Positions 11,548 to 11,801 of a DNA stretch of 64,000 bases are shown here, piece by piece. The DNA comes from Escherichia coli (GTDB lineage: Bacteria > Pseudomonadota > Gammaproteobacteria > Enterobacterales > Enterobacteriaceae), in NCBI RefSeq assembly GCF_003334305.1, contig NZ_QOWS01000005.1; one strand, written 5' to 3'. Within the stretch, counting starts at the first letter, position 1. Every line of letters starts with the position of its first letter. The notes under the pieces were generated by a model that saw only the letters and a list, made by a program, of their open reading frames with translations, was not told where the DNA came from and ran no database searches. A program made the translations under genes and the position numbers.

Positions 11548-11801
11548 AAATAAATTAGCCTGATGGCCTGAACTACTGGGCCATTAGGGTATTGGGTTAT
11601 GCTATTTGTCATCCTTTTATTTACGATAATGCTGAGGTAATTTACAGAATTAAACACTTTTTTATCCGCTGATTTTGTTTTAAATCACAATGTTATCTCA
11701 GAGATGACTCATAACTTCGGATTTCTATGAAAATATTGACGTAATTTTGCTTTTCTCTCGTTAGAATAGCGCGCACAAGGAACTGTGAAAAAGGAGTGGC
11801 A

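Follow-up and report, generated by a model that had tools for sequence, protein, structure and literature searches.

The core promoter and 27-nt leader of dgcZ in Escherichia coli, with two CsrA motifs downstream of a mapped transcription start

Leaders comparable with that of dgcZ have been described for glgC, cstA, pgaA, and nhaR, all of which carry a GGA within the Shine-Dalgarno (SD) sequence and at least one further A(N)GGA upstream at a distance that a CsrA dimer can bridge, and in all of which, as in dgcZ, ribosome occlusion is combined with destabilization of the mRNA. The core of the SELEX consensus for CsrA is ACARGGA, the pgaA leader is more than 200 nt long and has six CsrA sites, and Mercante et al. 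are said to have shown in 2009 that one CsrA dimer bridges sites about 10 to 63 nt apart. For the promoter, the point of comparison is the Pho box, in which the site of an activator (PhoB, of the OmpR/PhoB family and related to CpxR) replaces the −35 element. The product of dgcZ is a main source of c-di-GMP, which makes E. coli turn from swimming to PGA-dependent attachment to surfaces, and this enzyme is nearly silent in laboratory cultures because of the CsrA block on the dgcZ leader; the gene, under the names ydeH and dgcZ, was reportedly described as a CsrA target by Jonas et al. in 2008. Another diguanylate cyclase gene, ycdT (dgcT), is also directly repressed by CsrA, which in this way, too, holds c-di-GMP synthesis down, but ycdT is classed as having one site, against two in dgcZ (PMC4066749).

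We analyzed a stretch of 64,000 nucleotides of E. coli DNA (the window), in which positions 11700-11801 form the dgcZ-side end of the 254 bp that separate ydeI (11155-11547) from dgcZ, two genes on the same strand. RefSeq names the pair ydeI and dgcZ (diguanylate cyclase DgcZ, formerly YdeH, b1535), and a 1.7-kb query over both genes has a match in 5,419 of 5,426 complete E. coli genomes. From the ydeI stop codon into dgcZ, the sequence differs from that of K-12 MG1655 by one SNP (at 11633, far upstream of the start) and by no indels, and K-12 literature and coordinates therefore transfer directly, the window position being 1635652 minus the NC_000913.3 coordinate (dgcZ is on the minus strand in K-12). 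The element is, base for base, the already known ydeH/dgcZ promoter and leader of K-12, listed as dgcZp in RegulonDB/EcoCyc with the same transcription start site (TSS), 27-nt 5′ untranslated region (UTR), two CsrA sites, and CpxR site; nothing of substance differs. In this respect, the analysis offers no new biology on the dgcZ leader and promoter, a textbook regulatory element having been recovered from sequence alone, and all that is left to explain is the action of CpxR and copper on a promoter lacking a canonically spaced −35 element. The gene itself is as follows.

11802-12692, plus strand: dgcZ (ydeH, b1535) coding sequence, 296 aa, a zinc-sensing diguanylate cyclase; the RefSeq start is the ATG at 11802.

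Two codons 5′ of this ATG is an in-frame GTG (11796), which overlaps the SD sequence, and a mechanical list of open reading frames begins DgcZ as MAMIKK. We favor the ATG at 11802, given its agreement with the RefSeq annotation, with the distance expected from an SD sequence, and with a UTR of 27 nt.

The reading that we consider very probable is that this region holds the core promoter of dgcZ and a 27-nt leader with two CsrA motifs, one of which includes the SD sequence, and that CsrA blocks translation there. It starts from the following two features.

11762-11767, plus strand: −10 hexamer TAGAAT (−13 to −8), matching TATAAT at 5 of 6 positions, with a 7-nt discriminator to the mapped TSS.
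11775, plus strand: TSS of dgcZ (an A), from SMRT-Cappable-seq and from Kim et al. 2012.

The initial annotation had named a mapped TSS as the test of its promoter hexamers, and two independent genome-wide data sets place +1 at 11775, 8 nt past TAGAAT. SMRT-Cappable-seq (PMC6131387, Supplementary Data 2) places the TSS of a monocistronic b1535 transcription unit at 1623877 (reverse strand), equivalent to 11775 in the window, and this unit in the long reads agrees with the known annotation (PMC6131387). Kim et al. 2012 (PMC3415461, supplement) give a 5′ UTR of 27 nt for ydeH, and their sequence from −50 to +1, CTATGAAAATATTGACGTAATTTTGCTTTTCTCTCGTTAGAATAGCGCGCA, ends in TAGAATAGCGCGCA, the final base of which is the A at 11775. 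A TSS at this position makes TAGAAT the −10 element, sets the length of the leader at 27 nt, and puts both GGA motifs within the transcript. Promoter activity of the region has also been recorded in a study of dgcZ in EPEC (PMC13131220, 2026), which used fusions starting at about −217 or −78 and ending at −1 or +26: the CAT fusions that end at −1 are active, including the fragment from about −78 to −1 alone. Two other sigma factor assignments were set aside by eye, namely, a sigma-S promoter, whose −13C signature is absent (a T or G precedes TAGAAT), and a sigma-E-like GGAACT...TCAAG pair, whose 20-nt spacing is too long.

Within the transcribed part upstream of the start codon, three features carry the argument for CsrA.

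11775-11801, plus strand: 27-nt 5′ leader ACAAGGAACUGUGAAAAAGGAGUGGCA, from the mapped TSS to the ATG, A-rich and essentially unstructured.
11775-11782, plus strand: upstream candidate CsrA site ACAAGGAA (GGA at +5 to +7), in which ACAAGGA fits ACARGGA.
11791-11796, plus strand: SD sequence AAGGAG, 5 nt 5′ of the ATG and the second candidate CsrA site (GGA at +19 to +21).

The leader thus has a GGA overlapping the SD sequence and a second A(N)GGA 14 nt away, both downstream of the mapped TSS. AAGGAA (11777-11782, with ACAAGGA at 11775-11781) and AAGGAG had initially been placed 10 nt apart; both motifs are present, but the gap between them is 8 nt, or 14 nt from GGA to GGA. By chance, a second ANGGA within 18 nt is expected with a p of about 0.05, an AAGGA with about 0.01, and an ACARGGA with about 0.002, and two ANGGA motifs within the 29 nt upstream occur for only 1 of the 41 long open reading frames of the window. 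What lifts the observation above chance is the mapped TSS and the conservation of the motifs, both of which are external to these motif statistics. A covariance search with Rfam 15 over 10800-13200 (E of ≤1) returned no family in the leader and only STnc560 downstream of dgcZ, and on this basis we reject a known RNA family there.

Structure prediction, proposed at the outset as a check for hairpins that present the GGA motifs, speaks against such hairpins: the leader folds no better than shuffled sequence (z = +0.25), and the first GGA is single stranded. The predicted minimum free energy of the 27- to 30-nt leader is −1.3 kcal/mol, and longer contexts yield z values from +1.37 to −0.46. All three bases of the upstream GGA are predicted to be unpaired with probabilities of at least 0.88 in contexts of up to 150 nt; in a 250-nt context, only the first G is mostly unpaired (0.82), and this first G ranges from 0.82 to 1.0 in every context. 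The SD sequence is predicted to be open in a short transcript. Presentation in hairpins being unsupported, CsrA would bind single-stranded sites. This is where the locus departs from glgC, cstA, and pgaA, compared with which dgcZ has a far shorter leader (27 nt) that is unstructured, carries its first site at the extreme 5′ end, and lacks a GGA-presenting loop. Its unusual shortness and lack of structure have already been noted in print (PMC6028588), in a biophysical model that credits dgcZ with two high-affinity ANGGN sites lying close together and with a need for only minimal unfolding, with which the unstructured leader found by folding agrees. As a separate observation, the SD region GGAGUGGCA (11793-11801) is predicted to pair with UGCCAUCUU (11826-11835, codons 9 to 11) in contexts of 76 to 126 nt.

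The claim of CsrA-mediated translational repression accords with the literature, which treats direct repression of ydeH/dgcZ through multiple sites around the SD sequence as established. Among CsrA targets validated by experiment, the gene is counted with those that have several sites around the SD sequence (PMC4066749), and RegulonDB holds two CsrA sites for dgcZ (per PMC13131220). Binding of CsrA to ydeH has been confirmed in vitro, with recovery by HITS-CLIP and a repressed class I pattern (PMC5389547); both the translation efficiency and the mRNA stability of ydeH are altered in a csrA mutant (PMC5694010); and strains with csrA deleted are routinely used for DgcZ expression (PMC8262984). 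When the EPEC fusions are lengthened from −1 to +26 and so gain both GGA motifs, almost all activity is lost (PMC13131220), a silence that could have other causes because the vector is a transcriptional-fusion vector and the background was csrA+ only. In csrA51, ydeH mRNA is raised, and one study also reports higher activity of a ydeH promoter-lacZ fusion, and CsrA may thus act in part on transcription or indirectly.

To follow the element across species, we scanned one genome per bacterial species for orthologues. Among the matches listed, true DgcZ orthologues are confined to Escherichia, at 96% identity in a divergent E. coli cluster and at 90% in both E. albertii and E. whittamii; the other matches listed are generic GGDEF proteins at ≤41% identity. 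With dgcZ restricted in this way among the matches listed, the depth of conservation is limited. Nine sequences were aligned: the window, five divergent E. coli alleles, and those of the divergent E. coli cluster, E. albertii, and E. whittamii. In these nine sequences from three Escherichia species, TAGAAT is invariant and the 20-bp spacing is kept, as is the TGAC core of TTGACG, the full hexamer reading TTGACA in E. albertii and E. whittamii and CTGACG in the divergent E. coli lineage. Variation in the leader is limited to 3 of its 27 positions (+2, +10, and +16), none of them in either AAGGA, compared with 19 of 23 positions between −78 and −56; the stretches from +3 to +9 and from +17 to the ATG are invariant in all nine. 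Farther 5′ than about −135, the alignment between Escherichia species is poor or absent. Judged from the alignment, this footprint supports a function for the −10 element, the two CsrA motifs, and some feature at TTGAC.

The preferred mechanism can be put together as follows, with motif positions, TSS, conservation, and lack of structure obtained here and CsrA binding and repression taken from the literature. RNA polymerase uses the −10 element TAGAAT and starts at the A at 11775, giving a monocistronic mRNA, on which one CsrA dimer would occupy both the 5′-terminal ACAAGGA and the AAGGAG of the SD sequence. From the 14-nt spacing and the known behavior of CsrA, we infer that a single dimer bridges the two sites. 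By covering the SD sequence, CsrA would block binding of the 30S subunit, with destabilization of the mRNA as a secondary effect. Titration of CsrA by CsrB, CsrC, or McaS would then allow dgcZ to be translated and c-di-GMP to rise, and PGA-dependent biofilm formation would increase as motility declines.

Two overlapping features upstream of the −10 element bear on how transcription is activated.

11736-11741, plus strand: TTGACG (−39 to −34), the proposed −35 element, matching TTGACA at 5 of 6 positions and lying 20 bp 5′ of the −10 element.
11736-11750, minus strand: CpxR-box-like sequence GCAAAATTACGTCAA, a candidate activator site, fitting GTAAA-N5-GTAAA with 2 mismatches and centered at −32.

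The initial annotation had paired TTGACG with TAGAAT, about 20 bp downstream, as a plausible sigma-70 promoter. The distance is exactly 20 bp by sequence, although TTGACG occupies 11736-11741 rather than 11737-11742, an offset of one. Of the pairing itself, TAGAAT holds as the −10 element on the strength of the mapped TSS, but TTGACG makes a weak −35 element, given its 20-bp spacer and its overlap with the CpxR-box-like sequence. No −35 element is found at the canonical spacing of 17 ± 1 bp, hexamers at spacers of 15 to 19 bp from the −10 element matching TTGACA at only 1 or 2 of 6 positions; no extended −10 TG is present in the context TCGTTAGAAT; and a consensus promoter scan with spacers of 16 to 18 nt makes no call at the dgcZ hexamer pair. 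Nor is the pair remarkable by itself, since six pairs of hexamers with at least 5 of 6 matches each and a 20-bp spacer occur on the two strands of the 64-kb window. A dgcZ promoter without a canonical −35 element is typical of activator-dependent promoters and fits the reported dependence on activation by CpxR.

TTGACG may then be an activator half-site because its 20-bp spacer is noncanonical and because it lies inside the CpxR-box-like match. Taken to its conclusion, this would make TTGAC(G/A) a half-site of a CpxR box (GCAAA-ATTAC-GTCAA on the minus strand) in the −35 region of an activator-dependent promoter, the pairing of the hexamers being coincidental, an alternative to which we give somewhat less than an even chance. 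The poor matches to TTGACA at spacers of 15 to 19 bp and the silent consensus scan point this way, and so does the uniqueness of the match: it is the only one with ≤3 mismatches to the CpxR consensus within 11697-11774, and the −78 to −1 fragment is said to hold the CpxR box only (PMC13131220). Moreover, the CpxR iModulon and the CpxR regulon of RegulonDB both include dgcZ (CpxR ChIP-exo study), and the changes among species fall in the N5 spacer of the box or swap mismatched states of a half-site. On the other hand, matches with 2 mismatches occur in the window at chance level (86 found versus 67 expected), dgcZ is absent from the direct targets in the CpxR ChIP-exo study, and the perfect TTGACA of E. 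albertii and E. whittamii would equally fit selection on a −35 element. The −78 to −1 fusion, furthermore, is active yet unresponsive to copper, to which the longer fusion does respond, the copper response needing sequence 5′ of −78 (PMC13131220). The roles of far-spaced −35 element and CpxR half-site are not mutually exclusive for TTGACG, and we treat both as candidates.

Farther upstream, a block at about 11646-11698 on the plus strand (−129 to −77), which reads AGAATTAAACACTTTTTT.TC....ATTTTGTTTTAAATCACAATGTTATCT, is conserved and is kept in E. albertii and E. whittamii. It adjoins a second 2-mismatch CpxR-like match (11641-11655, minus strand, GTTTAATTCTGTAAA, centered at −127), which belongs to a class of matches found at chance frequency and is broken by a 10-bp insertion in E. 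albertii. The block may be a functional activator site or the site of another regulator, copper induction needing sequence upstream of −78 (PMC13131220). The hypervariable stretch that we counted above among the nine Escherichia sequences (11697-11719) lies between two strongly conserved blocks and resembles a spacer that is roughly constant in length but not in sequence.

A tentative and rather unlikely extension would join these parts: the invariant TGAC (−38 to −35) would lie in a response-regulator box that replaces the −35 element in the manner of PhoB, and the block at about −129 to −77 would be the real copper/Cpx site or the site of another regulator. By analogy, promoters with Pho boxes are similar in having a direct-repeat box about 11 bp 5′ of a good −10 element and no canonical −35 element. 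Different is that ChIP-exo does not list dgcZ among the direct targets of CpxR and that its copper response requires sequence 5′ of −78 (PMC13131220). Were this arrangement true, the assignment of a “CpxR box” to dgcZ in RegulonDB would be incomplete or misplaced.

For the leader, the competing explanation is that the upstream GGA is incidental and that repression proceeds through the SD site alone or through sequestration of the SD sequence, whether by an sRNA or by the first part of the coding region. Short GGA motifs are common enough to allow this, about 20% of random 18-nt stretches of the window holding one; CsrA targets with a single site exist, such as ycdT and hfq (PMC4066749); and the SD sequence is predicted to pair with 11826-11835 in contexts of 100 to 250 nt. 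That pairing, however, is no stabler than in shuffled sequence (z = 0 to −0.46) and, because of this, is probably not meaningful. The upstream site, moreover, is not just any GGA but the much rarer ACAAGGA (p of about 0.002), unchanged between species although neighboring leader positions differ, and ydeH has been classed as a multisite target (PMC4066749 and PMC6028588), with two sites in RegulonDB (per PMC13131220). We therefore regard an incidental upstream GGA as improbable and retain two CsrA sites in the leader. Least probable, and rejected on TSS data (PMC6131387 and PMC3415461), is that dgcZ is transcribed mainly by read-through from ydeI and that the hexamers are not a functional promoter, for although the two genes share a strand, with ydeI the upstream one at a distance of 254 bp and no call of a strong intrinsic terminator between them, the TSS at 11775 was obtained by two methods that enrich 5′-triphosphate or primary ends, long reads show monocistronic b1535, and the −78 to −1 fragment alone drives a reporter (PMC13131220).

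Two further observations concern the flanks of the locus. On its upstream side, an inverted repeat, ATGGCC-N10-GGCCAT (11563-11584, plus strand), begins 16 nt past the ydeI stop codon; it has no clear T-run, and the terminator scan is silent there, but it may be a weak ydeI terminator or an RNA-stability hairpin. On the downstream side, directly past the dgcZ stop codon, the STnc560 match of Rfam (12704-12917, plus strand, 282 bits, E of 7e−66) covers the sRNA MgrR, whose K-12 annotation (1622817-1622914) corresponds to 12738-12835 on the plus strand of the window, and a terminator-like hairpin with a T-run is found at 12809-12828. In the TSS data of Kim et al. 2012, MgrR has 3,693 reads, a very strong signal, versus 5 for ydeH (PMC3415461). 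The opposite strand codes for the small proteins MgtS and MgtT, and mgtT overlaps mgrR in antisense.
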